This document shows positions 1,537-19,902 of a stretch of 20,000 nt of DNA, in pieces. The stretch is taken from the IMG/VR virus record IMGVR_UViG_3300047499_000163. One strand, 5' to 3'. Origin of the DNA: an uncultured virus (IMG/VR IMGVR_UViG_3300047499_000163) (taxonomy: Duplodnaviria; Heunggongvirae; Uroviricota; Caudoviricetes). The stretch's first letter is position 1. Each line of letters begins with the position of its first letter. The translations under genes and the position numbers were made by a program. The notes beneath the pieces are model-generated. The model searched no databases and was not told where the DNA came from. It saw nothing but the letters and a program-made list of their open reading frames with translations.

Positions 1537-1684
1537 TCAGCCATCCCCTGGGTCCCTTCCAGAAAATGGCGTAAGGCGCGGCATCGCGCCTGACAACCCA
1601 CTCGCTCGGAGCGTCGTCGAGCCTGGCCATGTGCCAATCGTGCATGAGAATGGCGGCCTCGCGGGCGCGTTGCAATAGGGTCAC
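1537..1684 (-). CDS. small hypothetical protein (MTLLQRAREAAILMHDWH...), 3' end uncertain
   Basis: GTGA overlap with the upstream VMES stop; protein-like frame; needs a frameshift to use TGA at 1537. Confidence 0.4.
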
Positions 1685-1922
1685 GACTCCATAACCTCTT
1701 CGACGAGGGCCTCGTTGATGGCGGCTTGCAGCCGCTCGACTGGCACCTTTTTGACCAGGAACCGGATCTCTCGACGGAAGAGTTCAAGCGCTCGGCCTCG
1801 GCCTCGTTGGCACCAGCCTGCACGTACTTCTCGATGATCTCCTTGCGAGACTCGATGTCTGCACGTGCGCTGCTCATGAACAGAGAGCGGTCTTTGTCGA
1901 GTATGCCGCGCTGTCTGCTCAT
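1681..1922 (-). CDS. helical hypothetical protein with C-terminal VMES tag; 1-bp deletion near 1790
   Basis: MSRQRGILDKD...GANEAEAE joined to ALELFRREIRFLVKKVPVERLQAAINEALVEEVMES*; 242 bp, one base short of 81 codons. Confidence 0.7.
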
Positions 1923-2122
1923 GATTCCATCACTTGCCGGGCGACAACCAGGTCGCAATCCTCGGTCCTGTGCGGTTGGTCCGCGTCGTCCGGGCACACC
2001 CCTCGCTCGAGATGGACGGTCTTGCCGCATCTGTCGCAGCCCCACACCGTCAGGTGGCTCAGCATTCCCCGGGGAGGAAATGGCCGAGGCGAATGGTTGA
2101 TGTGCCAGCGATGGGGTGTCAC
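1919..2122 (-). CDS. small Zn-ribbon protein, HxW/CxxC/C class, VMES tag
   Basis: HRW...WGCDRCG...DCDLVVARQVMES*. Confidence 0.85.
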   Translation of the reverse strand: MTPHRWHINHSPRPFPPRGMLSHLTVWGCDRCGKTVHLERGVCPDDADQPHRTEDCDLVVARQVMES

Positions 2123-2365
2123 TCAGTAGTTCTCGTCCAGATACTCATCCAACTCGGCGGGCATGTAGCCGGCCTTCTTGGCGGCGTCGCACACGGTCTG
2201 AGGGACGCCCTTGTTGACCAGATCGACGAACGATCTGGCGCCTGTGAGATCGCTTCGCGAGAAGGACACCCCGTCGAAGGTCCAGCCCTGCTCTTCGGGA
2301 CGACGACCTTTGTTCCAGGGACGGACCACCGGACGAATCTGAGGGACGGTGGTTGCTGCGCTCAT
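2123..2365 (-). CDS. hypothetical protein, probably leaderless
   Basis: MSAATTVPQ...DEYLDENY; ATG 12 nt from the promoter GTA, no SD. Confidence 0.75.
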   Translation of the reverse strand: MSAATTVPQIRPVVRPWNKGRRPEEQGWTFDGVSFSRSDLTGARSFVDLVNKGVPQTVCDAAKKAGYMPAELDEYLDENY

Positions 2366-2374
2366 GCAGCGGGC

Positions 2375-2399
2375 TACGCGGGCGGTCGGGCGATCCACG
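2375..2399 (-). promoter_or_regulatory. promoter-like motif CGTGGAT-N15-GTA
   Basis: Same spacing as the other copies; intergenic. Confidence 0.6.
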
Positions 2400-2486
2400 G
2401 ACGGCGGGCCGGGCGAGGCGGCGAGAGGCGCACGGAGCAGCCATGGAGCGCGGGCGCGACCGGGCCGGACGGGCGCACGGCGCCGA

Positions 2487-2732
2487 TCAGATTCCCTCCT
2501 CCTCGAGGAGTTCCTCCGGCGTCTTGCCGATCATGCCGTACTCCTTGATGATGATCCCGACGTGTGCCATCAGAGTGAGCTTGAGAGACGCCTTGTACTT
2601 GGGGTCGAATCTGCGCGACTGCAGCACCTTCAGCCGCGTCAGAGCCATATATGCCAGGGTTTTGTGTTCGGGGTCGGGGGAGTTCTTACAGACGTACTCC
2701 AAGAACCATCCGAGCTTGAACTTCTCGCTCAT
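2487..2732 (-). CDS. hypothetical protein
   Basis: MSEKFKLGWFLEYVCK...; ATGA overlap; GC3-biased codons. Confidence 0.8.
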   Translation of the reverse strand: MSEKFKLGWFLEYVCKNSPDPEHKTLAYMALTRLKVLQSRRFDPKYKASLKLTLMAHVGIIIKEYGMIGKTPEELLEEEGI

Positions 2733-3007
2733 CCCTTCACCGTGCTGTTGATGGCGAAGTCCTTGGCGATCGCCCAATCCTTCTCGGGTTTGGGGGCGTG
2801 CCGGAAGTCCAGCAGGCACTTGCCGTCTTCCAGAGGCTCGGGGCACGGGTAGCCTCGGGAGAAATCCAGAAGCTCCTTCATGGCCTGGTCCTTCGCCGCG
2901 TCCGCGGCACGGGCCATTGCCACGTATCCCAGCTCGTGCTGACGCACCTGCTGGCGCTCGTTGACGGACAGGCCGGCTTGCCAGGTGTTGTTCCAGCGGA
3001 AGTACAT
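2729..3007 (-). CDS. hypothetical protein
   Basis: AAGGAG SD; TGATG overlap. Confidence 0.8.
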   Translation of the reverse strand: MYFRWNNTWQAGLSVNERQQVRQHELGYVAMARAADAAKDQAMKELLDFSRGYPCPEPLEDGKCLLDFRHAPKPEKDWAIAKDFAINSTVKG

Positions 3008-3192
3008 CAGGACAGCTCCTTCGGGTCGGTTGCGGGCTCGCGGTCTTCGTCGACCATGAAGCTCATGCGGAAAGCGAAGAGTCGGGAATCATCCTTGGGC
3101 ATCAGGCGCACGGCCTCGTCGTAGGTGAAGCCGATGGCCTGCAGGTAGTTGAGGACAGTTCGCCGGTAGTCGGCCACCTGAGCGGGAGTCAT
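3007..3192 (-). CDS. hypothetical protein
   Basis: MTPAQVADYRRTVLNYLQAIG...; ATGA overlap. Confidence 0.8.
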   Translation of the reverse strand: MTPAQVADYRRTVLNYLQAIGFTYDEAVRLMPKDDSRLFAFRMSFMVDEDREPATDPKELS

Positions 3193-3608
3193 CGGGATAC
3201 CTCGACAGTCTGCCGCAGACCGAGCGTCTCTCCGGTTGCCGTGGCGAACAGCGACAGGATGTTCTCCTGACCCGGCGGAATGGTGATGAAGACAACACCA
3301 CCCTCCTCCCGCACGTATCTGGTCATCGCCTTGGAGATATCCGGCAGAAGCTGGAGATTGGCCTGGTGCACATCGTCGAGGATGATGCCGACGTTCTCGG
3401 GCAGCTTGTCGAGCAGCCCCATGTTGGTCTCGTCGAGAGTCCCGGCGTTGATGGTGACGGCCTCCCTGCCGAGACGCCGGATAGCCATGTCCGAGAGCCA
3501 CACCTTGCCGGAGCCATAGACGCCGACGACCACCACAGCAACGTGATGGCCCGCGGCCTCGACGAGTTTCGAGACCACCTCTTCATTCCTCTTCATCACG
3601 GCTTCCAT
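3189..3608 (-). CDS. small P-loop NTPase/AAA+-like domain protein with atypical Walker A
   Basis: VVVVGVYGSGKV (Walker A with Val at the T/S position), VTINAG, IILDD Walker B; AAGGAG SD before ATG 3608. Confidence 0.75.
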   Translation of the reverse strand: MEAVMKRNEEVVSKLVEAAGHHVAVVVVGVYGSGKVWLSDMAIRRLGREAVTINAGTLDETNMGLLDKLPENVGIILDDVHQANLQLLPDISKAMTRYVREEGGVVFITIPPGQENILSLFATATGETLGLRQTVEVSR

Positions 3609-3866
3609 GTTGCTCCTTCTCAGATTGGAGACAATTGCTTTGGCCTTGGTCCATCCGCACACGATCCTGATGCAGGATCGGTGCAGGCCCTCAGTGTAGA
3701 TGTGAAGCCCTCCGGAAGAGGACCACTGCGCGACGCGCTCCAGGCCATCCTCTTCCCACACAACCACGGCTCCATACGCGCCGAGCTGGACCCAATCCCC
3801 GGTGGGTTCTTGAGGCCGGAATTCCGGGCTCTGGAAGCAGGAGTGGCGGAGGTCCTTCGCGGTCAT
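3609..3866 (-). CDS. hypothetical protein (MTAKDLRHSCF...); in frame with the AAA-like gene, so either a fusion or a separate gene whose stop was lost
   Basis: ATGA overlap at 3863-3866; strong internal SD at the junction. Confidence 0.6.
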
Positions 3867-4075
3867 GCCCTCTTCTCGAGCAGGCTCACTTCGATTTCGG
3901 CGAGGGCCAGGAGCTTTGCCATCTCCTGCCATTTGCAGTCGAGCCGGCACACGGGCACGGTCTCTTTCTCGCCGGTGGAAGTCCCCTGCGTGATCGTCGT
4001 CTTCTCGCAGCAGTCCTCGGGCCAGACCTTCATCATCTGGCGACGGACTGCCTCGACGGCGGCCAGTGCACTCAC
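3863..4075 (-). CDS. hypothetical Cys-containing protein
   Basis: GTGA overlap; MSALAAVEAVRRQMMKVWPEDCC... Confidence 0.7.
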   Translation of the reverse strand: MSALAAVEAVRRQMMKVWPEDCCEKTTITQGTSTGEKETVPVCRLDCKWQEMAKLLALAEIEVSLLEKRA

Positions 4076-4437
4076 GCGCCGACTGCCTTGTAGTACCCCA
4101 CGGCGCGCACAGTGATCTTCTCGCCGCCGAAGTCCTCGATGAGGGGAGTGCAGCCGGCGTAGAACTCGACCGCCTTGGTGATGAGCTGCTTGAAGAGCTT
4201 GCGGTCCTCGCGCCCCTGCGGCGCCTTGATGCGCGCGTAGATGGGGTTCTTCCAGTTGGCCTTGTCGGCCACCAGGTCGAAGAACGGCTTGTACATCATC
4301 TGCTCGGGGAGCAGCTCGGGCGGGCGCGGCGCTTCGTCGAGGAGACCTGGCTCGGTCACGACTTCGAGGGTCTCGTGGAGATTCAGCTCCACGACGTCCG
4401 GTCCAGCGCTCCCATGCTTGCAGCTTCCGTTGCACAT
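4072..4437 (-). CDS. hypothetical phage-type protein
   Basis: GGAGG SD; NWKNPI...AVEFYAG...AVGYYKAVGA. Confidence 0.85.
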   Translation of the reverse strand: MCNGSCKHGSAGPDVVELNLHETLEVVTEPGLLDEAPRPPELLPEQMMYKPFFDLVADKANWKNPIYARIKAPQGREDRKLFKQLITKAVEFYAGCTPLIEDFGGEKITVRAVGYYKAVGA

Positions 4438-4458
4438 CGCTCCACCTCCACCGATCGA

Positions 4459-4483
4459 TACGCGCCGACCGGCGCAATCTGCG
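4459..4483 (-). promoter_or_regulatory. promoter-like motif CGCAGAT-N15-GTA
   Basis: Consensus copy; GGAGG at +12. Confidence 0.8.
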
Positions 4484-4511
4484 CCCTGCGTGGGAGGAGC
4501 GGCTGGACTAT

Positions 4512-4709
4512 TCAGTCCATATGGATTTTCATGACGAGGGCCACGTCGCAATCCTGGCCTGCAGCCACCACTTCATGGTCCTTGTGCGGGTCGAATCCCT
4601 TGTAGAGGGTGGTGCCCCAACCGCACCTGTGGCAACGCCACCTGACACTAGTGGGTCCGCCGAGAGCAGACCGCCACTCGGATTCTTGAACCCACTCGTG
4701 CGGCTTCAT
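4512..4709 (-). CDS. small Zn-ribbon protein, HxW/CxxC/C class, tag variant IHMD
   Basis: HEW...WRCHRCG...DCDVALVMKIHMD*. Confidence 0.85.
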   Translation of the reverse strand: MKPHEWVQESEWRSALGGPTSVRWRCHRCGWGTTLYKGFDPHKDHEVVAAGQDCDVALVMKIHMD

Positions 4710-4941
4710 CGCTTCCTGCTAGGGAGCCTCTTCCAGAATCCCACGGCAAACATGCCAATCGTGACCACAGCTACGATCTGCAGGGGCATGGTCGTGTCGC
4801 TGTCGATCCACGCTTCGCGGATCTTCTGGATAGACCCCTCTTTCCCGTTCATGTCGAACCAGATCATCCAGAACACTGGTCGAAGAAGACCCCGAGCAAC
4901 AGGCCGAGCGCGTAGACGGCCCGTGGCGACGGGACCTTCAC
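4706..4941 (-). CDS. small two-TM membrane protein; 1-bp deletion near 4880
   Basis: MKVPSPRAVYALGLLLGVFF joined to PVFWMIWFDM...PLQIVAVVTIGMFAVGFWKRLPSRKR*; overlaps at both ends; 236 bp, one base short. Confidence 0.65.
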
Positions 4942-5180
4942 CACGTTTTTGCGCGGAGACTCCAGCCCTTCTTCTTGAGCCATGCCTGCAGTTCCTCCCA
5001 GCTTGCGGATGTACCCCGGTCCGGCGCGTTTGCCGTCTCCCGGAAGTACATGTCGTACACCTTGTCGAAGCGCAGACCTCCCACGGGAGGCTGCGGCTCT
5101 CCGCGCAGATCGAGGGTGCCGTCCTCGAATCGGCGCTCGATGATGACCATCTGGTCGCCGCGGAACGGCTGCATGCTCAT
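4938..5180 (-). CDS. hypothetical protein
   Basis: MSMQPFRGDQMVIIERR...; TGATG overlap; GGAGG SD. Confidence 0.75.
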   Translation of the reverse strand: MSMQPFRGDQMVIIERRFEDGTLDLRGEPQPPVGGLRFDKVYDMYFRETANAPDRGTSASWEELQAWLKKKGWSLRAKTW

Positions 5181-5692: not shown

Positions 5693-5712
5693 AGGTTGCC
5701 TCCGCCCACCGA

Positions 5713-5737
5713 TACGGCGCGGACCGTGTGATCTCGC
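5713..5737 (-). promoter_or_regulatory. promoter-like motif GCGAGAT-N15-GTA
   Basis: Same spacing; GGAGG at +12. Confidence 0.7.
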
Positions 5738-5759
5738 TTTTTCGTTGTCCGATCATAGT

Positions 5760-5912
5760 ATGACAACGGTTTGCGAGAAGTGCAGTGCGATTGTGCGCCA
5801 TTCAATCCCTTTACAGCGGGAATTCTCCTGTGTTGAGCCATGTTGCGAGGACCCATGCCGTGAGACATCGGTCCGTTGCGGTCGATCCCGCGGCCGGTGT
5901 CGTGGTCCCTGA
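5760..5912 (+). CDS. possible small Cys-rich protein (MTTVCEKCS...)
   Basis: CxxC near the start; fills an intergenic gap; may continue by frameshift into LSHVARTH (C2H2-like). Confidence 0.35.
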   Translation: MTTVCEKCSAIVRHSIPLQREFSCVEPCCEDPCRETSVRCGRSRGRCRGP

Positions 5913-5980
5913 GGTAGACGTCTCCCTTGTGCTGGCGGGGTCTGAGAGAAACCCTTCTATGGGTGAAACGGAACTGCCTG

Positions 5981-6910: not shown

Positions 6911-6917
6911 AACCCGA

Positions 6918-6942: not shown

Positions 6943-6954
6943 ATTGTGCCGGCG

Positions 6955-7164
6955 CTAGGATTCCATGATTTCGGCCACGATGGTCAGATCATTGAACTCG
7001 TCGCATGGCCACCGGCCAAATACTTCTTCGATCTGATACGGCACGGCCTTCTTCGTGGTCTTGTCACGTACGAAGCGCATACTGCACCGGCGGCAGACCA
7101 CCGTCTCCACATCGAGATACGTTTGCACCACCTCGAAGTCGTGACCTTTGTCGTCGAGGCTCAT
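6955..7164 (-). CDS. small Zn-ribbon protein, IMES tag
   Basis: HDF...VCRRCS...C...LTIVAEIMES*. Confidence 0.85.
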   Translation of the reverse strand: MSLDDKGHDFEVVQTYLDVETVVCRRCSMRFVRDKTTKKAVPYQIEEVFGRWPCDEFNDLTIVAEIMES

Positions 7165-7325
7165 GACTCCATCACCACGCGGACGATCTCGTCATGTAGA
7201 GCAGACTGGAGATGCTCCCCGAGCTTGACACAGTGCCGCTACACGCCGTAGCTCGAGCTGGATCTTGGGGTCTTCCCTGAACTTGCGAGCCCCGATACGG
7301 AGCTGGTGCAGTCGAGCTTGTGCAT
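7161..7325 (-). CDS. small helical protein with VMES tag; interrupted as sequenced
   Basis: Ends KLGEHLQSALHDEIVRVVMES*; in-frame TAG at 7239-7241, or two compensating indels giving RLHQLRIGARKFREDPKIQLELRRVAALC. Confidence 0.55.
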
Positions 7326-7347
7326 GTGCACCACTTCCGCCGATCGG

Positions 7348-7372
7348 TACGCGCGGATGGGCCGGGTCTGCG
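7348..7372 (-). promoter_or_regulatory. promoter-like motif CGCAGAC-N15-GTA
   Basis: Consensus copy; GGAAG at +12. Confidence 0.75.
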
Positions 7373-7379
7373 CTTGGCG

Positions 7380-7598
7380 TCAGGCTTCCATCACCTTGTA
7401 CACGATCATCTCTTCACAAGACAGATACGCCGTCTCGTTGGGTTCCTTCTTGACGTGCATCTTCTCGTCGGGAGCTGGCGCCGAATGCCTGTGGGTCTCG
7501 TAACCGCAGTTGCCGCAGACGAACACCTGGCGACTCTCGTTGCCGAAGTTGTCCTTCGAATAGGGGAACCGCCCCGTGGCCTGCCAGTCGTGGTTCAT
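7380..7598 (-). CDS. small Zn-ribbon protein, HxW/CxxC/C class, VMEA tag
   Basis: MNHDW...FVCGNCG...SCEEMIVYKVMEA*. Confidence 0.8.
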   Translation of the reverse strand: MNHDWQATGRFPYSKDNFGNESRQVFVCGNCGYETHRHSAPAPDEKMHVKKEPNETAYLSCEEMIVYKVMEA

Positions 7599-7862
7599 GA
7601 CTCGCGAAGCGTGCCTACTCCGTCCGAGAAGACCCATGATGCGTTCGACGACGAACTCGTCGACGCAATCCCCGAAGATCTTGCGCCAGTCATCCAGCGA
7701 GAAGCCGGACGTGTTCTTCTGATACATGAGCCGCTTGATATCCGATTTCACGGACACCAGGCGCCGCTCCTTGTCCTCGGCTTTGGCGAGAGTCTTCGGG
7801 TCAGGAACCTCGCTGGCGGGGACAACTGTCACGAGCTTGACGTGCCCTCGCAGATTACGCAC
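7599..7862 (-). CDS. helical protein with tag-like end (CVDEFVVERIMG); reads in frame into the next gene as sequenced
   Basis: GTG 7862, MRNLRGHVKLVTVV...; one extra G near 7634 would end it IMGSSRTE*. Confidence 0.6.
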
Positions 7863-7879
7863 GCGCGTTTCTCTGTGGC

Positions 7880-8128
7880 CTAGGTCCTCACCCACGGCAG
7901 CAGACTGGCCTGCATGACGGGACCGTGCAGTTGGCAGAACCCGAACACGTCGTGGTACCGGGCCTCGCGCAGACGGTACGGGAAAAGCTCCGAGTATTCG
8001 GCCCGCAAGAACACGTCGATGTTGCGCCCACACGGCTTCGTTGACGTCCACTTCACGAGCTTGCCCGTGATGGCATCTTTGGCCCCGTGGACCTCACCAT
8101 CAACGCGGTAGACGCACTTTGTGCTCAA
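7880..8128 (-). CDS. small Cys/His protein (C...C...CxxH)
   Basis: TTGA overlap; MSTKCVYR...PCGR...FCQLH. Confidence 0.7.
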   Translation of the reverse strand: MSTKCVYRVDGEVHGAKDAITGKLVKWTSTKPCGRNIDVFLRAEYSELFPYRLREARYHDVFGFCQLHGPVMQASLLPWVRT

Positions 8129-8960: not shown

Positions 8961-9152
8961 GTGAATCTGGTCGCGCATGACTGGCACCAGGTGCCCGCCG
9001 CGTTCAATAAGTGGCAGTGCTCCAAGTGCGGGTGCGCGGTCGCATCTGGCTGCAGACCTCCGGCTTTCCACGAGGTCCTCACTTTCCAGGATGGTCAAGA
9101 GTTCCTAGGAAACTGCGCCGAGATTCAGGTCTGGCAAGTGATGCTGGCCTGA
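8961..9152 (+). CDS. small Zn-ribbon protein, HxW/CxxC/C class, VMLA tag
   Basis: GGGAG SD; HDW...WQCSKCG...NCAEIQVWQVMLA*. Confidence 0.85.
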   Translation: MNLVAHDWHQVPAAFNKWQCSKCGCAVASGCRPPAFHEVLTFQDGQEFLGNCAEIQVWQVMLA

Positions 9153-9202: not shown

Positions 9203-9301
9203 TCAGTGCTTCTTGACGGCCGGCTTCTTCGCGGCGACCTTGCCCGCCTTCTTGGTGGTCTTGGTCTTCGCAGCCGGTGCCTTCTTGCTCTTCGTTGCCA
9301 T
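9203..9301 (-). CDS. 32-aa Lys/Ala-rich, histone H1-like basic peptide
   Basis: MATKSKKAPAAKTKTTKKAGKVAAKKPAVKKH; AAGGAG SD; terminator downstream. Confidence 0.8.
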   Translation of the reverse strand: MATKSKKAPAAKTKTTKKAGKVAAKKPAVKKH

Positions 9302-9350
9302 GGTGTTCTCCTTCGTGCGAGCTGCACGTGAGCACACTCTACTGAGTGAA

Positions 9351-9594
9351 TCACTCAGCGGAGAGCAGAGACACCACGGCTTCGAGGTGCGAGACCTCGC
9401 GACGAATCTCGAGCATGCCCCAAGGAACGGCGCAAACGGTGACTTCCATGAGGGAGCCCCACACGTCGAAGACCTCGGCGGCAGAGCCTCCGTGCTCGCG
9501 CACGTCATCTCTCAAGAAGTCAACCGCCTGCTCCAGAGCCTCTGGAGAGCGGATCTTACGGAAGGTAAAGACGGTTCGCCATGTGGCGCCTCAC
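9351..9594 (-). CDS. hypothetical protein; start disrupted by an apparent indel
   Basis: Open frame GATWRTVFTFRKIRSPEALEQAVDFLRDD...VVSLLSAE*; GTGA overlap is out of frame. Confidence 0.5.
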
Positions 9595-9770
9595 GACTCC
9601 ATGATTTCTTTGACGATACGCAGGTCGCACTCGCCGACCTGAGGTTTGTGCTTGGAGCTACACTCTTCACCGCAACGAGTGCAACGCCACAGAGGCGCTC
9701 CGAAGGCCACGGCGATGGCTTGCCCGAGGGTCAGCGGCTTCTTGGCGAGCCTCTCCCACTGATGCTTCAC
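9591..9770 (-). CDS. small Zn-ribbon protein, HxW/CxxC/C class, IMES tag
   Basis: MKHQW...WRCTRCG...ECDLRIVKEIMES*. Confidence 0.85.
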   Translation of the reverse strand: MKHQWERLAKKPLTLGQAIAVAFGAPLWRCTRCGEECSSKHKPQVGECDLRIVKEIMES

Positions 9771-9972
9771 AGCTCGCGCGAAGCCTACACCTCGGCCACG
9801 GGCTCGTCGTGCTCGTTCGGCCCGTATCCTCTGGACTCCATTCTGGCCGACAACGTGACCTGATGGGCTTGCCTTTGCCTTTGCCGTGGCGCTTCTCGAT
9901 CCACTCGGTGACGGCTTCTTTGACGTCGTCATCCGAGAGGTCGAAGGTCTGCGTCGACTTGCTCTTGCTCAT
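9767..9972 (-). CDS. hypothetical protein; 1-bp deletion near 9866; stop at 9785 or 9767
   Basis: MSKSKSTQTFDLSDDDVKEAVTEWIEKRHG...KP joined to HQVTLSARMESRGYGPNEHDEPVAEV*. Confidence 0.55.
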
Positions 9973-10388
9973 GACTCCATCACGTCCATGGCGATCTGCT
10001 CGCCGCAGTTGGGGTTGAGGTTCACCTTGGCGCACGCCTGGGCGAGGGTCTCGCTTCGCTGGACGTTGACCTGCCTCAGGCAGCTCTCGCAGCGCCACAC
10101 GTAGTAGTCGTCCTCGTAGATGGCGTCCTGGATGGTCTTCCACTTGTGGTTGCCGTAGTCGGGCTCCTCTTCCGGGAGGGTTTTGGCGTCGTCCGACTCG
10201 GCCATCTGGTCAAGCATGGCATCGAACGGGCTCTTCTCGACCAGCGCGCCGCCGTGCCCGATGAGATGGGCGTACGGGTCCGGAGGGCCAGCGGGGGCCT
10301 CGGGCGCGGCCTCCTTCGCGGCCTCGGGCGCGGCCTCGGGCTGTGGCGCCTTGTCGAGGCTCTCCAGGAACTTGTCGAAATCGCTCAC
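9969..10388 (-). CDS. acidic/Pro-Ala disordered N-terminus plus HxW/CxxC/C Zn ribbon with VMES tag
   Basis: NHKW...WRCESC...NCGEQIAMDVMES*; GGAGG SD. Confidence 0.88.
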   Translation of the reverse strand: MSDFDKFLESLDKAPQPEAAPEAAKEAAPEAPAGPPDPYAHLIGHGGALVEKSPFDAMLDQMAESDDAKTLPEEEPDYGNHKWKTIQDAIYEDDYYVWRCESCLRQVNVQRSETLAQACAKVNLNPNCGEQIAMDVMES

Positions 10389-13445: not shown

Positions 13446-13622
13446 CTAGTGGCGGTTGCGCCACGAGCGGGTGATCCGCCAGTAGACGAGGTTCGCCAAA
13501 TGGCGCTGACTCCACGAGGATTCGAAGTGCAGCTTGAGGTACCGGGCGAGCTTCTCCAGATACGCACGTTTGGACCTAATCAGGTCGCCGCGCCTCAAAG
13601 CCTCGGGAGCCAGAAAGCTCAT
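13446..13622 (-). CDS. small basic helical protein
   Basis: MSFLAPEALRRGDLIRSKRAYLEKLARYLKLHFESSWSQRHLANLVYWRITRSWRNRH; ATGA overlap. Confidence 0.8.
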   Translation of the reverse strand: MSFLAPEALRRGDLIRSKRAYLEKLARYLKLHFESSWSQRHLANLVYWRITRSWRNRH

Positions 13623-14209
13623 GACAGCATCACTGTCGCAACAGCAATCAGGTCCTCCAGCTCTTGCTTGGAAGGGAAGGGCCTGTCGACCGTGAACATA
13701 TTGTCCACTATGACGGCGAGATGCCGGACGTACTCGCTGCAACCGAGGGCCTTCTGGCAGATATCCGCAAGCGAGTTGTGCGTCAGATGGCGGGCCTTGC
13801 GGTCCTGCTCCTTGATGTGGATGAGACCGCGCACGATGCCTTCCGGACCGAGTTCCTTGGCAAACTGACTCAGGCCGTCCGGGTATCCGATACGCCAGAT
13901 GGTCTCCTGTATGAGATCTTCCGGAATAGGCAGACCCCTTTGCTTGCAGACGTTGCGGTATTTCTTGGCGTTGGTGATGAGCGACCGAGAAGTCTTGCCT
14001 CCGAACTTGGGGTCGCTCATGCGCCGGTCGAGGTACGCCTGCAGCGCCTCCCTCGGGTCGCACACCTGGCACTTGCGCAGATGCTTGAGGACGGCTCCGT
14101 ACAGGATCTGGTTGTCGACGATGAAGCTCGACACCGGGCCGGTCTTCGTCTCTTTCGAGGTCCGACCGTCCTTCCGACCCTCCACGGTGATTTCGCAGTT
14201 CAGACCCAT
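13619..14209 (-). CDS. 196-aa hypothetical protein with HxxxCxxC and C-terminal VMLS tag
   Basis: KHLRKCQVC; ends LEDLIAVATVMLS*. Confidence 0.8.
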   Translation of the reverse strand: MGLNCEITVEGRKDGRTSKETKTGPVSSFIVDNQILYGAVLKHLRKCQVCDPREALQAYLDRRMSDPKFGGKTSRSLITNAKKYRNVCKQRGLPIPEDLIQETIWRIGYPDGLSQFAKELGPEGIVRGLIHIKEQDRKARHLTHNSLADICQKALGCSEYVRHLAVIVDNMFTVDRPFPSKQELEDLIAVATVMLS

Positions 14210-14472
14210 TCGACCCCTAGGCACGATAGCACATCGGCCAGCCAGGAGCCCTGCTTCTCGGGATCGTCGCCGAGCCCCATCCCGCCGAGCTTGTCGGCGT
14301 ACTCGTTCCAGACCCACTGGAGCTTGTCCCACAGCTCGTCGCGGGTCAGCGAGTCGTTGCCCATGATGGGGTCGTTGCCGAACGTGAACTTGTCGATACC
14401 CTGAGCGTCCCAGGCTTGGTCGAACTGTTCTCGCGTCGGCATTTCACCGTATGTCATCGTAAACAGGGCCAC
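14200..14472 (-). CDS. hypothetical protein
   Basis: GGAGG SD; MTYGEMP...SWLADVLSCLGVEWV. Confidence 0.85.
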   Translation of the reverse strand: MALFTMTYGEMPTREQFDQAWDAQGIDKFTFGNDPIMGNDSLTRDELWDKLQWVWNEYADKLGGMGLGDDPEKQGSWLADVLSCLGVEWV

Positions 14473-14492
14473 CGCGCACCTCCACGCGCCCG

Positions 14493-14517
14493 TACGCGTG
14501 CGCGTACTCGATCGACG
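14493..14517 (-). promoter_or_regulatory. promoter-like motif CGTCGAT-N15-GTA
   Basis: Same spacing; GGAGG at +12. Confidence 0.7.
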
Positions 14518-14790
14518 CCCGGCACCAATGTCCTTCGGATCGCGCGGGCTCGGGCGCGTTTGTGAAGGTGGTTGTTTCTCTAAGAGAGAATTTCAAAATC
14601 CACAAAATTAATAAAGTGATGACTGAATGAAATACCTCATCGTCCGCAAAAATATTTGGCTGCATTTAGTGCATGACCAAAGATTTTTACTCTTTTCAAT
14701 CCAATTGTGACCAGGTTCTTCTTCCATATAGTTGATCCTACACAGGACGGAAGCCCGAGCAGCCGGCGCGTATCAGGAACCGCTGAACCA

Positions 14791-15297
14791 TCAAGTAATT
14801 TGTGCAAACGGTTTTCGAAGTTGAGGAATACCATTGGGTGTTTGATGATAGCTCCGTTCCTCAACTTTTTTGATCTGCTGGCAGTTTGCACATAACACCT
14901 GGAATCCAGATGGAAGATTGCGGTCAAGCCATTTATAGAAATTGACACCTTGTCCAATTTCTTTCCGGTGTCGGTTTCCTCCTCCATTAATATGATCTAT
15001 GGTCAAGGCCCTCATATCATCGAATCCACATACACACCGCGGATGGGGACCACCATAGTGCAAGAAAACTCGATATTTACATTCGTAATATCGTGCAAGA
15101 CATGCGGCGTTATGAGCTTCTCGATATGTATCTCGCTCGGTTGCGTAATGACCACGCTTCTCACGACGAGCTATCGTACGTCGTTCATTCCGGCAAAGCT
15201 TGCACTCATGAAACTTGCCGTCTCTAGTAAAGCTACTGTTGCCAAAATCATTGATGGTTTTGCGTTTATCACATCTGGTACAACGCTTCTTCGACAT
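14791..15297 (-). CDS. HNH homing-endonuclease-like protein with N-terminal Zn finger, in an AT-rich island
   Basis: KRCTRC...ECKLC; RCVCG...LTIDHINGGG..HR...FYKWL...GFQVLCANC. Confidence 0.88.
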   Translation of the reverse strand: MSKKRCTRCDKRKTINDFGNSSFTRDGKFHECKLCRNERRTIARREKRGHYATERDTYREAHNAACLARYYECKYRVFLHYGGPHPRCVCGFDDMRALTIDHINGGGNRHRKEIGQGVNFYKWLDRNLPSGFQVLCANCQQIKKVEERSYHQTPNGIPQLRKPFAQIT

Positions 15298-15338
15298 ATT
15301 CTGAGTCACCATAAAAAGATGATTCTCGGGAGAGAAAC

Positions 15339-15533
15339 GTGATCACCTGCGAACTGCATCTGATGATGGGGCCATTCCCCGACAGATGCGACAGTGAAGC
15401 TGAATACTTCTACCAAGTGGGTGGCAGTTATCCTGAATATCACGCCCGCTGCAAACGACACCCGATGAACATGGAGGTCTGGAAGCCGGTCTCCAAGGAG
15501 CAGTATGTCTTCGGCTCTGTCATGGATTCCTAA
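15339..15533 (+). CDS. small CCCH-type protein, VMDS tag
   Basis: C...CDSEAEYFY...ARCKRH...VSKEQYVFGSVMDS*. Confidence 0.85.
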   Translation: MITCELHLMMGPFPDRCDSEAEYFYQVGGSYPEYHARCKRHPMNMEVWKPVSKEQYVFGSVMDS

Positions 15534-15708
15534 ATGCGACTTCTGCGGGAACACCGCTTGTAAGTTTTACAAGGCCCACCGTCGAAACGCCTGGGAGCAG
15601 ACGAAATACTTCGCTTGCTGCAATCTCCATAAGAATCCGATCAGAGACGATTCCGAAGGAGAGGTTTCCATCGACGAGTATGTTATCGCAGGAATCCACG
15701 ACTCGTGA
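15505..15708 (+). CDS. small CCCH-type protein, IHDS tag (start uncertain)
   Basis: CDFCGNTACKFY...ACCNLH...VSIDEYVIAGIHDS*. Confidence 0.8.
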   Translation: MSSALSWIPKCDFCGNTACKFYKAHRRNAWEQTKYFACCNLHKNPIRDDSEGEVSIDEYVIAGIHDS

Positions 15709-15722
15709 AGATGGAAAGTTAG

Positions 15723-15981
15723 ATGGCTCTCAATCCTTCTCGTCATTTTTGGGGTAAACCAGCTTACACATTTGTTCCATCATGTCAGGACACAAGAATC
15801 TTTCCAACACCGGAAGTTCAAAGACGTCAGGCTCACCCTGCGAGACGGGACTGTTCACACGCCAGTCAACGGCTGGAAGTGCAAGCGGTGCGGCCACATC
15901 TGGTGGGACTGCACGCCGCCTCGGCCGAGAGCCGAGCCCATTTGCCATATGCTCATCGTGAGCAAAGTGATGGAATCATGA
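15723..15981 (+). CDS. Zn-ribbon protein, HxW/CxxC/C class, VMES tag; apparent frameshift near 15800-15817
   Basis: MALNPSRHFW... joined to FKDVRLTLRDG...WKCKRCG...ICHMLIVSKVMES*. Confidence 0.75.
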
Positions 15982-16268
15982 ACGAACGGGACTACAGCGA
16001 AGCGGTGTACGACTGGCGAAGGACGGGCCGGCAGGACGCCGCGAACGTGATGGACCCGAACGAGATCGAGGACCGTCTCGGCAAGGAGCCCTCTGCTGCG
16101 GCCGTCAAGAAGTGGCTGCTCGAGGAGACGGATCCCGAGATCTACCTCGAAATGCCCGGGGATGTCACGGAGGAGCAGAAGAAGGGCCTGCTCGATGCAT
16201 GGGCGGATGGCTGGTCGGCGTACGCTTCGCATGCCATGGTCGGAAGGCCAAGGCCGGAGGATTCGTGA
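15978..16268 (+). CDS. hypothetical acidic protein
   Basis: ATGA overlap; MNERDYSEAVYDW...AWADGW. Confidence 0.8.
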   Translation: MNERDYSEAVYDWRRTGRQDAANVMDPNEIEDRLGKEPSAAAVKKWLLEETDPEIYLEMPGDVTEEQKKGLLDAWADGWSAYASHAMVGRPRPEDS

Positions 16269-16549
16269 CAGAGGAGTTGCCCTCAATCCAGTGCGACTAC
16301 TGCTGGGGAGATTCGCCGTCGCAGCAAGTACCGGACCGAGGGAGCCGGTGCCCGCACGAGGCCGAGCTTTTCTACATGATAAAATGTCGCCCCAACAGGC
16401 GAGATACCATGGAGGTCGCCCGGAGGCTCGGCCGCGACTTGTATATCTCGGCAAGGTGCCCGGCGCATCCGCGAGCGGATTCCACGCTCTTCGAGCGCCA
16501 GCCCATCAGCCGGGCCGAGTACCTGGTCGCTGAAGTGATGGAGTCGTGA
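16265..16549 (+). CDS. small CCCH-type protein, VMES tag
   Basis: CDYC...CPHEAELFY...SARCPAH...ISRAEYLVAEVMES*. Confidence 0.85.
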   Translation: MTEELPSIQCDYCWGDSPSQQVPDRGSRCPHEAELFYMIKCRPNRRDTMEVARRLGRDLYISARCPAHPRADSTLFERQPISRAEYLVAEVMES

Positions 16550-16773
16550 CAAGCCCCATCCGCCCCGACCAGCACGATTGGAGGAAGGGAGGAAGGCTCC
16601 GCTTGCCAGCGGACGTGCGTCCAGGAAAGCCCGCCCTGTGGCTCTACTCGTGCAGGAAATGCGGTCACTCGACCGCGGCGCAGTTCCAACCGAGCCGGAA
16701 CGCAAAAGTCCAGCTCAAAAGCGGGAACTTCTCCTGCGATGAGTACCTAGCGCGCAGGATCCACGAGAGCTGA
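16546..16773 (+). CDS. small Zn-ribbon protein, HxW/CxxC/C class, IHES tag
   Basis: HDW...YSCRKCG...SCDEYLARRIHES*. Confidence 0.85.
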   Translation: MTSPIRPDQHDWRKGGRLRLPADVRPGKPALWLYSCRKCGHSTAAQFQPSRNAKVQLKSGNFSCDEYLARRIHES

Positions 16774-16776
16774 GGG

Positions 16777-17094
16777 TCACTCCTCGCCGCGAGCCCGGCG
16801 CTTCTCGTGAGATACCCGGCCGCCGACGCGACCCGCGCGCCTGGCCTCTTCCGAAGTGAACTCGTGAGCGGTGCCTGCTCGGTGGGCAGCCTTGCCGCCT
16901 TTGCGGGCAATCTCGGACACGAGCTTGCGGTCCATGGCCGCAAAGCCGCGGGGTCGGGATTTGTCCGAATAGGGACCGGGCTGGGACCGAGGGGCTTCTT
17001 TCGCGGCAGGAGTCTCGGCCACGGTGTCCAGACCGTGGCATTCGGAGAACTTCTTGCCGGAAGCGCAGGGGCAAAGGTCTGAGGGAGCGGGCAT
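16777..17094 (-). CDS. SEC-C motif + KGG-repeat general stress protein (alternative start 17115)
   Basis: LCPCASGKKFSECHG; RGFAAMD...EIARKGGKAAH..GTAHEFTSEEARRAGRVGG. Confidence 0.88.
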   Translation of the reverse strand: MPAPSDLCPCASGKKFSECHGLDTVAETPAAKEAPRSQPGPYSDKSRPRGFAAMDRKLVSEIARKGGKAAHRAGTAHEFTSEEARRAGRVGGRVSHEKRRARGEE

Positions 17095-17111
17095 CGCCTG
17101 CCACTCTACAC

Positions 17112-17508
17112 TCATTCGAAGGTGCGCTCGTCTGGATGGGCTTGGAGAAATTCCGCCAGAACGTTGGGCAGAAGCCCCTCTCCGACATCTTCGCCGTTGA
17201 TGGTCTGCGGGGTGAACGCCACGTATTTGTTGCCGAACTCCTGCATGAGCTTGGTCTGAAATTGTTTGTCCTGCAGAAGCGTGCAGGATCTCGTCGTCGG
17301 AGATGGAACTCTCTTCCGATTCCGGCTCCATGTCGGCTGGTCCGACGAATTCTATCGACGCCGTGGCGTCAGAGCTGTCGGTATTCTTCCAATCGTAGTC
17401 CAGCTCGGCAAAGCAGAGGACCTTGACATCGGGGCTCTTGCCATTCCACGCAAGCCGGGTGCGACTTGCGATACGCAGATTTGGCCAACGCGCGCGTGCC
17501 ACGCGCAT
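17112..17508 (-). CDS. hypothetical protein; frameshift near 17280
   Basis: MRVARARW...ISDDEILH joined to LLQDKQFQTKLMQEFGNKYVAFTPQ...DERTFE*; the second frame has typical GC3 codons. Confidence 0.6.
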
Positions 17509-17527
17509 AGCAGCAAGGGGTACAAGC

Positions 17528-17992
17528 CTACCTGCAGACGACGGCGATGATGGCCGAGGGAAGATACGAGACGTAGCACTCTTCGTCAGCGTCGCCCACG
17601 ACGCGCACGAGGTATCCGCCGAGGTCGGTGTTGTTGACGGTGAAGTTGCAGAGCGAGAGCTTGGCGCGGCCGACTTCTTGCGAACCGTGGCGCCCGCCGA
17701 GGACGGGAGAGAGGAACTGCACGTCCACATACTCGGGCGTCAGGGCCTTGCACTCGACGAGACCGGGATAGTGGTCCGACAGTTCTTCGAAAAGGCGCTG
17801 CAGACGGTCCTGCATCCCCACGTCAGCCATGGCCGAGGGTACGGCGCGCGAGGTCGCGTTTCCGTCCGAGCTGCGCCGAAGATGCTCGGACTGGATCAAT
17901 TTCAACAATTTCTCGCGGGTTCTGGAAGGTGCGCGCGAGACCAGCTTGGAAAACCCGCCTTCGGGGTTCTTCGCAGCATGCAGCACCTGCAT
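17528..17992 (-). CDS. hypothetical protein (start uncertain)
   Basis: 154-aa ORF; C-terminal half is protein-like. Confidence 0.55.
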   Translation of the reverse strand: MQVLHAAKNPEGGFSKLVSRAPSRTREKLLKLIQSEHLRRSSDGNATSRAVPSAMADVGMQDRLQRLFEELSDHYPGLVECKALTPEYVDVQFLSPVLGGRHGSQEVGRAKLSLCNFTVNNTDLGGYLVRVVGDADEECYVSYLPSAIIAVVCR

Positions 17993-18043
17993 GCTTGGAG
18001 CGACCTATTGTTTCATTATGTCGTACCGTCTCCTACACAGTCT

Positions 18044-18266
18044 TCAGGAGGTCATGACCTGCCAGGCAACGAAGTCGCCGAGAGTGATCTCATCACCCGG
18101 CAGCTCGGTACCACGAGACCCCACCGCGCCGAGATGTTCGGCGCAGTACGCTTGGAGCCAGACTGCGCCGGACGGATAAGTCCTGGCGAAGAATCTCTGG
18201 GCGAGCTGGCCGCAGAGTCTCGAAGGGTCGCCGCCCTCCGCCAAAGTCAAAAGTGCAAGTGACCAC
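18044..18266 (-). CDS. small CCCH-type protein, VMTS tag; apparent frameshift near 18237
   Basis: MVTCTFDFG joined to ...LCGQLAQRFF...AYCAEH...EITLGDFVAWQVMTS*. Confidence 0.75.
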
Positions 18267-18766
18267 ACGAGCAGCGTACACCGAGTTGGGTGACGGACAA
18301 GCCGGGATTTCTCTCGGACAGCCGAGGAGCTGCTCGTCGACCGAGCAGAGAGTCTCGCAACCGGGAGAGCCGACGAAACTCATGCGCGTGCGACGAGTAC
18401 GCCGTTTGGGCTGTGATGACCAGCTGAAGAACGTGGTGCAGCAACCCGCAGAACCCAAACCCGAGCCACACCCGAGCCACCTGGAACCCTCCGAGCCAGA
18501 CGGCAGAGGCTTAGACGGGCTGGTCATTTGTCGAGGCCCCAGATCGTCGCCACCGCCGAGGCGCTGCAGCAAGTACCACGGCGAGTGGATGACTATGCGC
18601 CTTCGAGAAGGCGCCAGCGCTTCCCCACGAAATCCCTGACCCGTCCAAGGGCACTTACCAGCCCCGAGCTTTGGGTCGGACGCGGACGCGGACCCGAGCT
18701 GTCCGGACCATGCTCCAGAAGCATCCCAAGTAGTGGAAAGCGCGTCCCGGCCGCCGTACCTGAGTT

Positions 18767-19033
18767 GTGCCACCGATTGCCGACCCCTGCCCGACCTGCG
18801 AAAGCATCCTCCACCTCGCACAAGACGGGCGGCGTCCTTCGAGACCAGGACGGACGGGCGGGCAAGATGCGGACTTGCCGCAGAGCACTTCTACATCCTG
18901 CCGTACGACCCAGCAGCCAGAGGGCAGCTTTCGGCGAGGTGTGAGGGCCACAAAATCCCCGACCGAAGAACGAGGACTGCGCCGGCGCTTGACCCGAGAG
19001 GAGTACCTGGTGGCGGAAGTGATGTTCTCGTAA
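18767..19033 (+). CDS. small CCCH-type protein, VMFS tag; two compensating frameshifts
   Basis: CPTC...; shifted frame RCGLAAEHFY...SARCEGH; ends LTREEYLVAEVMFS*. Confidence 0.75.
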   Translation: MPPIADPCPTCESILHLAQDGRRPSRPGRTGGQDADLPQSTSTSCRTTQQPEGSFRRGVRATKSPTEERGLRRRLTREEYLVAEVMFS

Positions 19034-19042
19034 AGTCCGAGT

Positions 19043-19362
19043 ATGAGCTCGGACGTTGGGGACGTACGCATGGGAAGAGATGGTCACGACGGACGACGGG
19101 CGGCAGTTCTGGACGGTGGTGGTCTGGTGCGGCTGGAGAGTGGCCCGTCTCGCCCTTCCGTGGGCCTTCCTGCTGTCTTGCGGCCCGAGACCCTCCCCCG
19201 GGACCGTCCCGAGCCTCCTGTCCTCCCGGAACCGGAGAGAGCCCGCCCGCCCGAGGTGCTTCGCGGGAGACCCCAACGGAAGCGGACGGGGAGAAGCTGG
19301 GGTCTTTGCACGAAGTCCCGTGCCCGGCTCCTCCCGTCCCAGAGGCCAGCCCTGAGGACTAG
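19043..19362 (+). CDS. possible Pro-rich protein, frame uncertain
   Basis: Fills the gap; hydrophobic segment ending FLLSCG in one frame and a Pro-rich segment in another. Confidence 0.25.
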
Positions 19363-19567
19363 CAGGACATGACCCACCAGATGGTTTCCTCGTCCGGGGC
19401 AAGACGCTTCAAAGTGATGTCGTAGGAAGGCATGCTCCCCGGAGCAACCAGTGTGCCCGTCCAGGCTGCTTTTCGCAGGACATGACCCACCAGGGACCGT
19501 CCTTCTCCACGAAGATGGCTGCCCGGCTCGGCAAGACCGGAAAGCGCCACGGCGGGACCGGAATCAT
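19359..19567 (-). CDS. small protein with VMSC tag variant; apparent 1-bp deletion
   Basis: MIPVPPWRFP...WWVMSCEK... joined to LKRLAPDEETIWWVMSC*; ATG 12 nt from a GTA box. Confidence 0.5.
19362..19493. repeat. exact 19-bp direct repeat GCAGGACATGACCCACCAG
   Basis: Copies at 19362-19380 and 19475-19493. Confidence 0.95.
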
Positions 19568-19605
19568 ACGGGAAAGTACGCCCGAGAAGAACGTATCCTG
19601 AGAAG

Positions 19606-19902
19606 ATGCTGATTGGTCACGACCTACCCTGCGACCTCTGTTTCATTGAGGCCACCGATCAGAAAAACCAGAGTGCTTCCGGTTTTCCGACATGGTTGAC
19701 GCAAGATGAGCTGCCTCGAGGAACTAGGGAGATTCTGCTGGGAAGGTCTACAGCGTCCGTCTGCAGCCGGCATCTCGAGGCGGCCTCCAATGGGATGCGA
19801 AGTAGGGATGGCAAGTTGGCGGAGATTCTATGCAAGCATGGGAGGCGTTTCTCCGAATGCAAGCGAGCGCTCTGCGTCGTCGAAGGGATAATGCGGAGCT
19901 AG
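19606..19902 (+). CDS. Cys/His-rich protein, IMRS tag
   Basis: CDLC...CSRH...CKH...C...LCVVEGIMRS*. Confidence 0.75.
   Translation: MLIGHDLPCDLCFIEATDQKNQSASGFPTWLTQDELPRGTREILLGRSTASVCSRHLEAASNGMRSRDGKLAEILCKHGRRFSECKRALCVVEGIMRS

Follow-up and report, generated by a model that had tools for sequence, protein, structure and literature searches.

A C-terminal VMES tail shared by many small proteins of uncultured giant phages, with a MoxR ATPase and zincin-vWA protein as candidate reader

In a 20,000-nucleotide stretch of an uncultured virus of the Caudoviricetes (IMG/VR record IMGVR_UViG_3300047499_000163; hereafter the window), some twenty small proteins with differing bodies finish in the same short peptide, V-M-E-S or a close variant, at the extreme C-terminus. 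We find this tail, or tag, to be the mark of a clade of uncultured and for the most part giant phages, in which it sits on dozens to about a hundred small proteins per phage; terminal address peptides are a known kind of signal, and the scale here is unusual. We read the VMES tail as a modular recognition tag acting at the level of the protein, its best candidate reader being a phage-encoded pair composed of a MoxR-type AAA+ ATPase and a protein that joins a zincin to a vWA domain, and we put the probability of this reading at roughly 0.42.

All 20 C-termini quoted in a preliminary description of the window are present in its sequence, together with one tagged end that had been overlooked (18290..18427, plus strand, C-terminus CDEYAVWAVMTS). 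That list of termini stands, but two of its positions do not: the internal VDEFVVERIMG, given at 7862, lies at 7632..7664 on the minus strand, and the gene placed at 15723, tagged as described, has its in-frame start at 15772. Ends matching [VI][MH].[SADC] close 20 of the 489 open reading frames (ORFs; stop-to-stop, at least 15 residues, six frames), with just 10 further occurrences elsewhere in the 37,052 translated residues. A 12-residue position-specific scoring matrix (PSSM), trained solely on 221 tags of two other phages (G001 and G002), places 21 of the 489 C-termini above a cut-off set at the 99.9th percentile of 30,695 internal 12-mers, against 0.49 expected; shuffled controls leave the shared tail standing, 200 ORF shuffles giving a mean of 0.45 and a maximum of 3. 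The marginal member of the 21 is the end of 14463..14630, with a score of 3.4. Positions -12 to -5, which played no part in choosing the tags, separate 19 of the 20 window tags by themselves.

The tag is spelled with varied synonymous codons, as had been noticed: the window counts are TCG 5, TCA 5, TCC 3 and AGC 3 for serine (13 TCN against 3 AGC), five kinds for valine and isoleucine (GTG 10, ATC 5, GTC 3, GTT 1, ATA 1), and GAG 6 and GAA 4 for glutamate, followed by the stops TGA (15), TAG (3) and TAA (2). Because the codons vary, even across the two serine codon families, selection acts on the protein and not on the DNA, which contradicts conservation at the nucleotide level only. The ligase, PolX, phosphoesterase and HNH proteins of the window lack the tag, again as first described. 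The window is GC-rich (0.50-0.65 per kb), and in-frame GC content at third codon positions (GC3) backs most tagged frames, weakly for those at 18290, 18767, 19359 and 19606, although as a gene caller GC3 is unreliable here, since antisense frames pass too. The tagged genes are as follows.

1681..1922, minus strand: tagged gene with the end NEALVEEVMES, frameshifted as sequenced; its start ATG at 1922 is in a different frame from the tag
1919..2122, minus strand: class-1 zinc-finger protein (HxW..CxxC..C), 67 residues, end CDLVVARQVMES; from alignment and an AlphaFold2 model
4512..4709, minus strand: class-1 protein, 65 residues, end CDVALVMKIHMD, a His variant of the tag; PSSM 12.8
6955..7164, minus strand: tagged protein, 69 residues, end NDLTIVAEIMES; PSSM 23.3
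7161..7238, minus strand: 3' piece of a frameshifted tagged gene, end HDEIVRVVMES; the upstream part is in a different frame, 7192..7413
7380..7598, minus strand: class-1 protein, 72 residues, end CEEMIVYKVMEA; PSSM 28.7
7632..7664, minus strand: internal tag VDEFVVERIMG within ORF 7380..8051, with no stop codon behind it as sequenced
8961..9152, plus strand (opposite to its neighbours): class-1 protein, 63 residues, end CAEIQVWQVMLA; in-frame GC3 0.73
9591..9932, minus strand: class-1 protein, end CDLRIVKEIMES, start probably at 9770; PSSM 28.6
9969..10388, minus strand: 139-residue protein with a class-1 module at its end, CGEQIAMDVMES; from alignment
13619..14209, minus strand: 196-residue tagged protein, end EDLIAVATVMLS; a conserved family that adjoins the MoxR/DUF2201 pair in relatives
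15339..15533, plus strand: class-2 zinc-finger protein (C..C..CxxH), 64 residues, end KEQYVFGSVMDS; PSSM 11.3
15505..15708, plus strand: class-2 protein, 67 residues, end IDEYVIAGIHDS; from alignment and PSSM
15772..15981, plus strand: Cys-rich protein, 69 residues, end CHMLIVSKVMES; PSSM 26.4
16265..16549, plus strand: class-2 protein, 94 residues, end RAEYLVAEVMES; from alignment and PSSM
16546..16773, plus strand: class-1 protein, 75 residues, end CDEYLARRIHES; from alignment and PSSM
18044..18268, minus strand: tagged ORF, 74 residues, end LGDFVAWQVMTS; PSSM 15.9, in-frame GC3 0.71
18290..18427, plus strand: tagged ORF, 45 residues, end CDEYAVWAVMTS; PSSM 23.2, frame not singled out by GC3
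18767..19033, plus strand: tagged ORF, 88 residues, end REEYLVAEVMFS; PSSM 22.4, GC3 weak
19359..19550, minus strand: tagged ORF, 63 residues, end PDEETIWWVMSC; PSSM 16.4, GC3 weak
19606..19902, plus strand: tagged ORF, 98 residues, end RALCVVEGIMRS; PSSM 15.9, GC3 weak

The tag extends over about 12 residues with the consensus [C/S/T]-[D/E]-E-x-[I/V/L]-V-x-x-[V/I]-M-[E/D]-S-COOH, its upstream acidic pair being preceded by Cys in class 1 and by Ser or Thr in class 2. Leave-one-position-out counts over G001 and G002 give Met in 163 of 216 cases at position -3 (His 17, Gln 11, Leu 3, Ile 2), Val in 131 and Ile in 32 of 170 at -4, Val in 128 and Ile in 35 of 184 at -7, Ser in 148, Thr in 17 and Ala in 15 of 201 at -1, and Glu in 99 and Asp in 17 of 163 at -2; the helix is amphipathic and carries beta-branched residues at -8, -7 and -4. 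The fixed distance from the stop that had been proposed holds across these two genomes, where V..VM[ED] precedes a single residue and a stop 132 times, four residues twice, and zero, two, three or five residues never. With a matrix trained on these same genomes, scores above 15 occur at 93 of 645 protein ends in G001 and 43 of 576 in G002 (non-overlapping gene sets), and at no internal 12-mer in 140,563 and 125,556 residues, respectively. An externally read peptide would be expected to demand Met over other hydrophobic residues and to keep a fixed distance to the free end; a helix that only packs against its own protein would need neither. Since a single residue always separates the motif from the stop, we infer from sequence that one conserved partner recognises both the hydrophobic face (V-7, V/I-4, M-3) and the free carboxylate at the C-terminus; that some common external reader exists we consider likely.

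A back-translated pattern finds the tag in the IMG/VR records G001 (436 kb) and G002 (393 kb), both of which have terminal repeats and are rated complete. The strict DNA pattern has 56, 22, 3, 8 and 1 matches in five records, with none for a reversed-pattern control, and three 20-kb loci from the G001 and G002 records carry the tag on 8 of 677, 36 of 765 and 23 of 752 ORFs. Over the whole of G001 a loose form of the tag ends 146 of 3,511 ORFs of at least 40 residues, where 4.5 would be expected; 70 of these end in [VI]MES, their median length is 99 residues and the longest has 316, and 108 of the 146 lie within the first 120 kb. G001 also encodes a baseplate J-like protein, EF-Tu, a release-factor-like protein, sigma factors, DnaJ, RecA and clamp-loader subunits. 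The window is distantly related to this phage (43% identity for the ligase, 32% for the phosphoesterase, 32% for the 196-residue tagged protein and 50% for a 90-residue protein). The tag itself varies by lineage, being V-[V/I/L]-E-S in L133 and taking only degenerate forms in G009 and L116. No GenBank phage has a megablast match to the window or is close to this lineage, and the window's PolX has no relatives in viral_contigs. A pattern scan of cellular genomes, one per prokaryote species, returned 34 single scattered matches, no locus with more than one tag and no array, which we estimate to be about chance level and no clue to the host. Searches of the literature on phage C-terminal tags, small proteins of jumbo phages and phage vWA-MoxR systems found no description of such a tag among the papers listed.

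By sequence comparison, the carriers are diverging fast while keeping the tag. Median identity over the 182 orthologous pairs of G001 and G002 is 49.5%. Of 97 tagged G001 proteins, a homologue in G002 could be detected for just 7, with a median identity of 27%, and in six of these seven pairs both members are tagged. Relatives of the window's carriers behave likewise: the 196-residue protein ends in VMLS in all three of its relatives, at 58-67% identity (it has no tblastn match in GenBank phages), and the tag is retained in four metagenome relatives of 9969..10388 (P0017, P0039, P0083 and P0101). In G001 the major head protein (297 residues, L037:7666-8556) is 94% identical to its G002 counterpart against the orthologue median of 49.5%. 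At the edge of the tag-rich region of G001, an 868-residue protein (L024:3006-5609) combines a major-vault-protein shoulder (4e-29) with vault-repeat domains. A search upstream of 209 G001 genes for enriched 7-mers found only a tRNA-like word, with T4-type late and sigma-70 consensus motifs essentially absent.

That unrelated bodies lie beneath the common tag, as the preliminary description held, is borne out by BLAST clustering and profile-profile comparison. Stripped of their last 14 residues, 80 tagged proteins form 69 BLAST clusters; sorted by simple patterns, 26 belong to class 1, 15 to class 2, 26 are otherwise Cys-rich and 13 are Cys-poor, the last including all-helical proteins and, by eye, winged-helix-like ones. 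In the alignments His and three Cys are invariant in class 1 and three Cys in class 2, and hhalign aligns the two class profiles solely over their final 13 columns (probability 82%). The tag was also said to form a terminal helix, and so it does in AlphaFold2 models of two body classes: the class-1 model (1919..2122; predicted local distance difference test (pLDDT) score 82) has three strands and a helix at 56-66 that is the tag, and the class-2 model (pLDDT 85) a small sheet and then a terminal helix, 70-80, that is again the tag. Neither model has a convincing fold match, the best Foldseek hit in the PDB having E 0.9, the best in a wide VIA fold search Z 3.1 (B-box-like) and the best in a BFVD fold search E 0.12.

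The carriers belong to no described family that we could detect, as had been supposed: no tagged protein matches Pfam, PHROGs or NCBIfam. At E<=0.01, Pfam has no match among 20 window proteins and NCBIfam no relevant match among 18 tagged ones; PHROGs has no family match for tagged proteins; and Pfam finds no domain in the 143 of 146 tagged G001 proteins scanned, the other three spanning locus borders. By a rough comparison, given that those ORFs are longer, 96 of 260 longer G001 ORFs do have Pfam matches. Searched against 1.84 billion proteins, the class-1 profile retrieves 645 cluster representatives (E<=1e-3), and among its best 150 matches the tag ends 125 of 129 small ones, a figure with some circularity, as the tag is itself part of the profile. 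A word-index homologue search with alignment A1 gave just two matches, the index being too coarse for such proteins, and an Atlas search found otherwise unnamed clusters only; its one weak lead, Pfam HEWD (PF20576) for the class-1 body (feature score 0.86), finds no backing in Pfam itself, whose model is unmatched in the 20 window proteins. Database 'fusions' of two tagged modules (P0133, P0143 and P0027) read W or G where the stop of the first tag would be, and we think that in these a gene caller has read TGA as an amino acid.

The candidate reader lies within the tag arrays themselves. In G001, G002 and G004 the arrays contain a MoxR-type AAA+ ATPase (AAA_5) and a DUF2201_N/DUF2201 protein, which are 58-60% and 53-54% identical, respectively, across the three; in G001 they lie at L021:5877-6998 and L021:9900-11384, with a tagged neighbour at L021:9579-9830. 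The DUF2201 protein is a fusion of an HExxH zincin with a vWA domain, and both the HExxH and the DxSGS of the metal-ion-dependent adhesion site (MIDAS; D368-x-S370-G-S372) are invariant in alignment A2, so that a vWA partner with an intact MIDAS stands beside a MoxR ATPase in these relatives of the window. PHROGs lists the pair as phrog_1297 and phrog_1314; the best GenBank phage match to this lineage is 23.6% identical, leaving it with no close cultured relative, and sequence searches with the DUF2201 profile found no relative of solved structure. Tags follow the close lineage of the pair: 37 metagenome loci with a close DUF2201 (286 kb, GC 0.32-0.68) hold 153 tags, at least one in each of 26 loci, and 40 loci with a distant DUF2201 (391 kb) hold one; in a set of 35 viral loci the tag counts are 23, 16, 16 and 3 for the four close ones, and of the 31 distant ones 27 hold none and 4 hold one. 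Families of tagged neighbours, 150-270 residues long, are conserved around the pair in up to seven of eight lineages compared, the family found in seven always ending in ..VM.. or ..VL.., and homologues of four window genes lie no more than 10 kb from the pair in relatives. On this evidence of gene neighbourhood, the pair may well be the reader, an identification that we hold tentatively, at a little under even odds, and that falls in the 'protease or adaptor' class of partners named in the preliminary description; its other suggestions, namely host ClpX or Lon, virion loading and a host hub, may apply instead.

A second, independent co-occurrence of tag and pair comes from the other half of the DUF2201 tree. 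Loci L177 and L176 contain a Pfam-confirmed MoxR/DUF2201 pair, with DUF2201 about 25% identical, and the genes of 70-96 residues flanking it (L177:1754-7714 and L176:2166-4962) end in a different helix, S-x-E-E-F...L-E-K-L-L. About a dozen genes carry this LEKLL-type tag, among genes for a RecD-like helicase and PolA; it ends 9 of 88 ORFs in L177 and 4 of 35 in L176, where 0.39 and 0.10 would be expected. In L175, a 20-kb part of a metagenome contig of 228 kb, four ORFs beside a distant DUF2201-like gene end in ..[DE]-[EG]-I-[IM]-x-x-D-x-[LI], which may be a third tag type. The MoxR proteins of the VMES clade (L050, L051, L052, L104, L106, L119, L123 and L135) themselves end in ..V-R-K-A-M-K-[DS], in the register of the tag (V at -7, M at -3) yet basic and low in PSSM score; this tail may be a coincidence or a docking tail.

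How such a pair could handle tagged proteins is suggested by known MoxR-vWA chaperones, which serve as our model for docking and remodelling: in CbbQ-CbbO and NorQ-NorD, as at the MIDAS of Rea1, a vWA/MIDAS adaptor grips an acidic group of its client and the AAA+ partner remodels it. CbbQ-CbbO and NorQ-NorD differ from the pair of the VMES clade in having one dedicated client, no linear tag and no fused zincin. In the clade the tag helix is appended to many fast-evolving, unrelated, small proteins, non-enzymatic and non-structural, many of them presumed zinc fingers. By analogy, the free carboxylate, the small last residue and the V-7/V-4/M-3 face would dock on the vWA (MIDAS) or the zincin domain; and the MoxR ATPase would then remodel, process or destroy the docked client, the whole forming a putative two-part, tag-directed AAA+ protease or chaperone. 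Docking, partner identity and client fate are all steps that we infer. A wider version, in which phages use a strictly C-terminal helix (VMES here, LEKLL in at least one distant lineage) as the handle by which a MoxR/zincin-vWA machine would process, metal-load or destroy on schedule a turning-over library of effectors, tag and reader diversifying together, we regard as doubtful.

Several observations weigh against the pair as reader. The 20-kb window itself contains no MoxR/DUF2201 pair, and in G001, 38 of the 146 tags are found beyond the first 120 kb, at a distance from the pair. In the DUF2201 tree, a quick one only, the loci that bear VMES all group in a single clade (25 of 60 rows; support of 100 in the Shimodaira-Hasegawa-like approximate likelihood ratio test, SH-aLRT), so that the association of VMES with the pair counts as a single evolutionary event, confounded with relatedness. 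The pair occurs with few tags in G009 (one strict match in 308 kb, otherwise degenerate ...VM.. ends) and with none in L116, L109, L137-L139, L131 and L132, and a crude clustering test found no enriched C-terminal motif in the 31 distant viral loci. Conservation of DUF2201 is average (50.6% between G001 and G002, which ranks it 86th among 182 orthologues). In the AlphaFold2 models, which are compact, the tag is modelled with confidence (pLDDT 80-91 over the last blocks), and the last invariant Cys of class 1 falls within the tag, as its first residue; for both reasons the tag helix may be packed rather than free for docking. Iyer et al. 2021 (PMC7824862), whose 'group 2.2' jumbo-phage pair has the same architectures (AAA_5; DUF2201_N with DUF2201), propose that it acts in virion assembly and the processing of structural proteins, and their passages on the pair mention no tag or client set.

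Among other explanations, the reader might be something else altogether, either a strongly conserved host hub (an AAA+ protease or its adaptor, RNA polymerase or a chaperone) or another phage protein, with the tag a degron or a tether for takeover or anti-defence proteins. A strictly terminal position would suit readers of C-termini, the carriers are fast-evolving ORFans typical of host-takeover genes (0 of 143 with a Pfam domain, 7 of 97 with a G002 homologue), and G001 encodes further possible readers in two Cdc48/Mpa-like AAA ATPases, an M16 peptidase and DnaJ. Against this, tag-bearing loci range in GC from 0.42 to 0.68, so that hosts are probably diverse and a host reader would need to be nearly universal; cellular genomes have no tag array among their 34 single-match loci; and the Mpa-like ATPase of G001 matches G002 only across the AAA core (26-32% identity). 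We set the Mpa/Cdc48-like ATPases aside as readers for want of a close G002 orthologue, and think a reader outside the MoxR/zincin-vWA pair unlikely. That the tag is instead a capsid-targeting or cargo-loading signal, by which the mini-proteins would be packed in the prohead and injected with the DNA, we give a small chance. In its favour, the carriers are small (median 99 residues in G001), and the head protein is strongly conserved between G001 and G002 (94% against the 49.5% median). T4-type prohead proteases cleave behind a hydrophobic-x-Glu motif, which the V-M-E-S end resembles, but cleavage behind that Glu would take off one residue only. Moreover, the tagged genes sit among replication and repair genes, with 3 of 146 in the 180-260 kb structural region of G001; internal [VI]ME[SA] occurs four times in 140,563 residues and in none of the head proteins inspected; and no large virion protein is tagged, the longest carrier having 316 residues. 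Encapsulin cargo-loading peptides are likewise short, C-terminal and shared by unrelated cargo, which they dock inside an HK97-fold shell, but their consensus differs from VMES. The closer parallel is with the internal proteins of T4, which, in the part of one account devoted to them, are a diverse, small, fast-evolving and defence-related set sharing only a short terminal targeting sequence and one destination (PMC3012670); that capsid-targeting sequence, however, is N-terminal, about 10 residues long, removed by the prohead protease and confined to a handful of proteins, whereas VMES lies at the C-terminus, one residue from the stop, on about 14% of the predicted proteins of a 436-kb phage (93 of 645), among replication genes.

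The helix might also have no common partner at all, being instead part of the internal structure of small domains that make up a single, highly divergent family, where it would serve for packing or carry a zinc ligand. The compact AlphaFold2 models with their confident terminal helix, the invariant last class-1 Cys that is also the first tag residue and the presence of at least three Cys in 67 of 80 carriers all suit this idea; yet profile-profile comparison aligns the tag only, the tag is also found on Cys-poor helical proteins and on conserved proteins of 150-270 residues, a packing helix need not stop one residue past Glu nor prefer Met over Leu or Ile at -3, and with no fold match to either model a common fold is unsupported, so that we allow this explanation a slim chance. 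Mutual binding of the tagged proteins through their helices, into mixed oligomers, a matrix or a condensate, would make use of an amphipathic helix beta-branched at -8, -7 and -4 and of the many carriers per genome; we reason, however, that some 11 helical residues are short for a stable coiled coil, and self-binding leaves the strict terminal register unexplained, which makes its chance slimmer still. Conservation at the level of DNA, as a translational-coupling, ribosome-binding or recombination signal at gene boundaries, could draw on the tight packing of the arrays, on the TGA that ends 15 of 20 window tags and on the TC[A/G]TGA found in 10 of 20, which creates an ATG or GTG overlapping the stop. 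It is highly improbable given the synonymous variation (Ser TCN 13 and AGC 3; GAG 6 against GAA 4), substitutions that are conservative for amino acids (V/I, M/H/Q, Y/F/W), the same tag in phages of GC 0.42 to 0.68, and tags that end genes with no adjacent downstream gene (at 6955, with a TAG stop, 19033 and 19902).

The MoxR/zincin-vWA pair as reader would place VMES beside two further kinds of known system. The ssrA tag and the SspB tail are short C-terminal peptides, read at their free end, that send unrelated proteins to one ATP-driven machine; such tags have non-polar ends and ClpX- or ClpA-type readers, and are few per genome. VMES is likewise short and at the extreme C-terminus, and its register (132 against 0) is consistent with reading of a free C-terminus as in degrons of this type, degradation being here a putative outcome only. 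The VMES motif, [VI]-x-x-[VI]-M-[ED]-S, is not of the FxSxx, RxD or acidic types known from cellular conflict systems, of which the zincin and MoxR-vWA partners occur in the relatives' arrays (the zincin fused) and not in the window; no radical-SAM partner lies near the tag arrays, a Pfam scan of 260 G001 ORFs showing one B12-binding radical-SAM protein in a sugar-modification cluster at about 288 kb. In those cellular systems, as sections of Kaur et al. 2020 (PMC7159879) set out, zincin peptidases and small FxSxx-COOH-type proteins are attached to vWA-MoxR ternary conflict systems, which come closest, among published systems, to what we propose. Both they and VMES combine small, rapidly diverging proteins with a conserved extreme C-terminal peptide; a zincin and a MoxR-vWA pair lie nearby in those systems and, for VMES, in the arrays of the window's relatives. 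The same sections describe systems that are mostly actinobacterial, have FxSxx, RxD or acidic motifs, often include a radical-SAM protein and are thought to release the peptide (PMC7159879), whereas VMES belongs to phages, with the zincin fused to the vWA protein and tens to hundreds of carriers that look like folded zinc fingers.

If one partner reads the tail, then in some of the largest phages known about one predicted protein in seven would belong to one previously unseen pathway, most of these carriers being ORFans with no other clue to function. A phage-wide addressing system of this sort, if real, would be a viral counterpart of tag-directed AAA+ proteolysis, and the widespread, unstudied phage MoxR/zincin-vWA pair would gain a client set and a testable job. 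The tag lets candidate takeover and anti-defence proteins be listed from sequence alone, is usable as bait for a common partner, and may let foreign proteins enter the same route. The turnover of small phage genes also becomes measurable, with tagged genes seen decaying or toggling through a 10-base indel.

Such decay is visible in the window, where two tagged genes are frameshifted and a third (7599..7664, with its tag at 7632..7664) has lost the stop behind the tag and reads into the next gene. Because contigs of other runs show the same sequence at these sites, the decay appears to be real. Neither the tag at 1681 nor that at 7161 has an in-frame start codon, because both genes are frameshifted as sequenced. 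Samples differ by a 10-base indel behind 1783: runs X3 and X5 agree with the window, and a single contig from run X9 (known from contigs only, at a depth of about 4) has an insertion that, by arithmetic, puts 1681..1922 back in frame (239+10 is divisible by 3). The frameshift site of 7161..7238 is covered gaplessly by contigs of runs X3 and X7, and the 7161 and 7192 frames, when joined, resemble by eye the tagged protein at L003:6422-6715 (ELRRVAALC..KLG.HL). Relatives of the body of the internal-tag ORF 7380..8051 occur near the MoxR/DUF2201 pair, and one member of its family, L050:4421-4951, ends in TVERVMES.

The untagged surroundings offer three further observations. A low-GC island at 14400..15350 (0.50-0.54 per kb, against about 0.62 elsewhere in the window) contains ORF 14791..15312 (173 residues, GC3 0.37), which has many relatives near the tag arrays of other loci; classed as HNH in the preliminary description, it is probably a mobile homing endonuclease. 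ORF 16777..17730 (minus strand), which has no PHROG match, ends in what to us resembles a SEC-C-type Cys motif and KGG-type repeats. Finally, the 101-residue ORF 9203..9508 (minus strand) has a Lys/Ala-rich end (9203..9300) starting MATKSKKAPAAK, and may be a small histone-H1-like basic protein.

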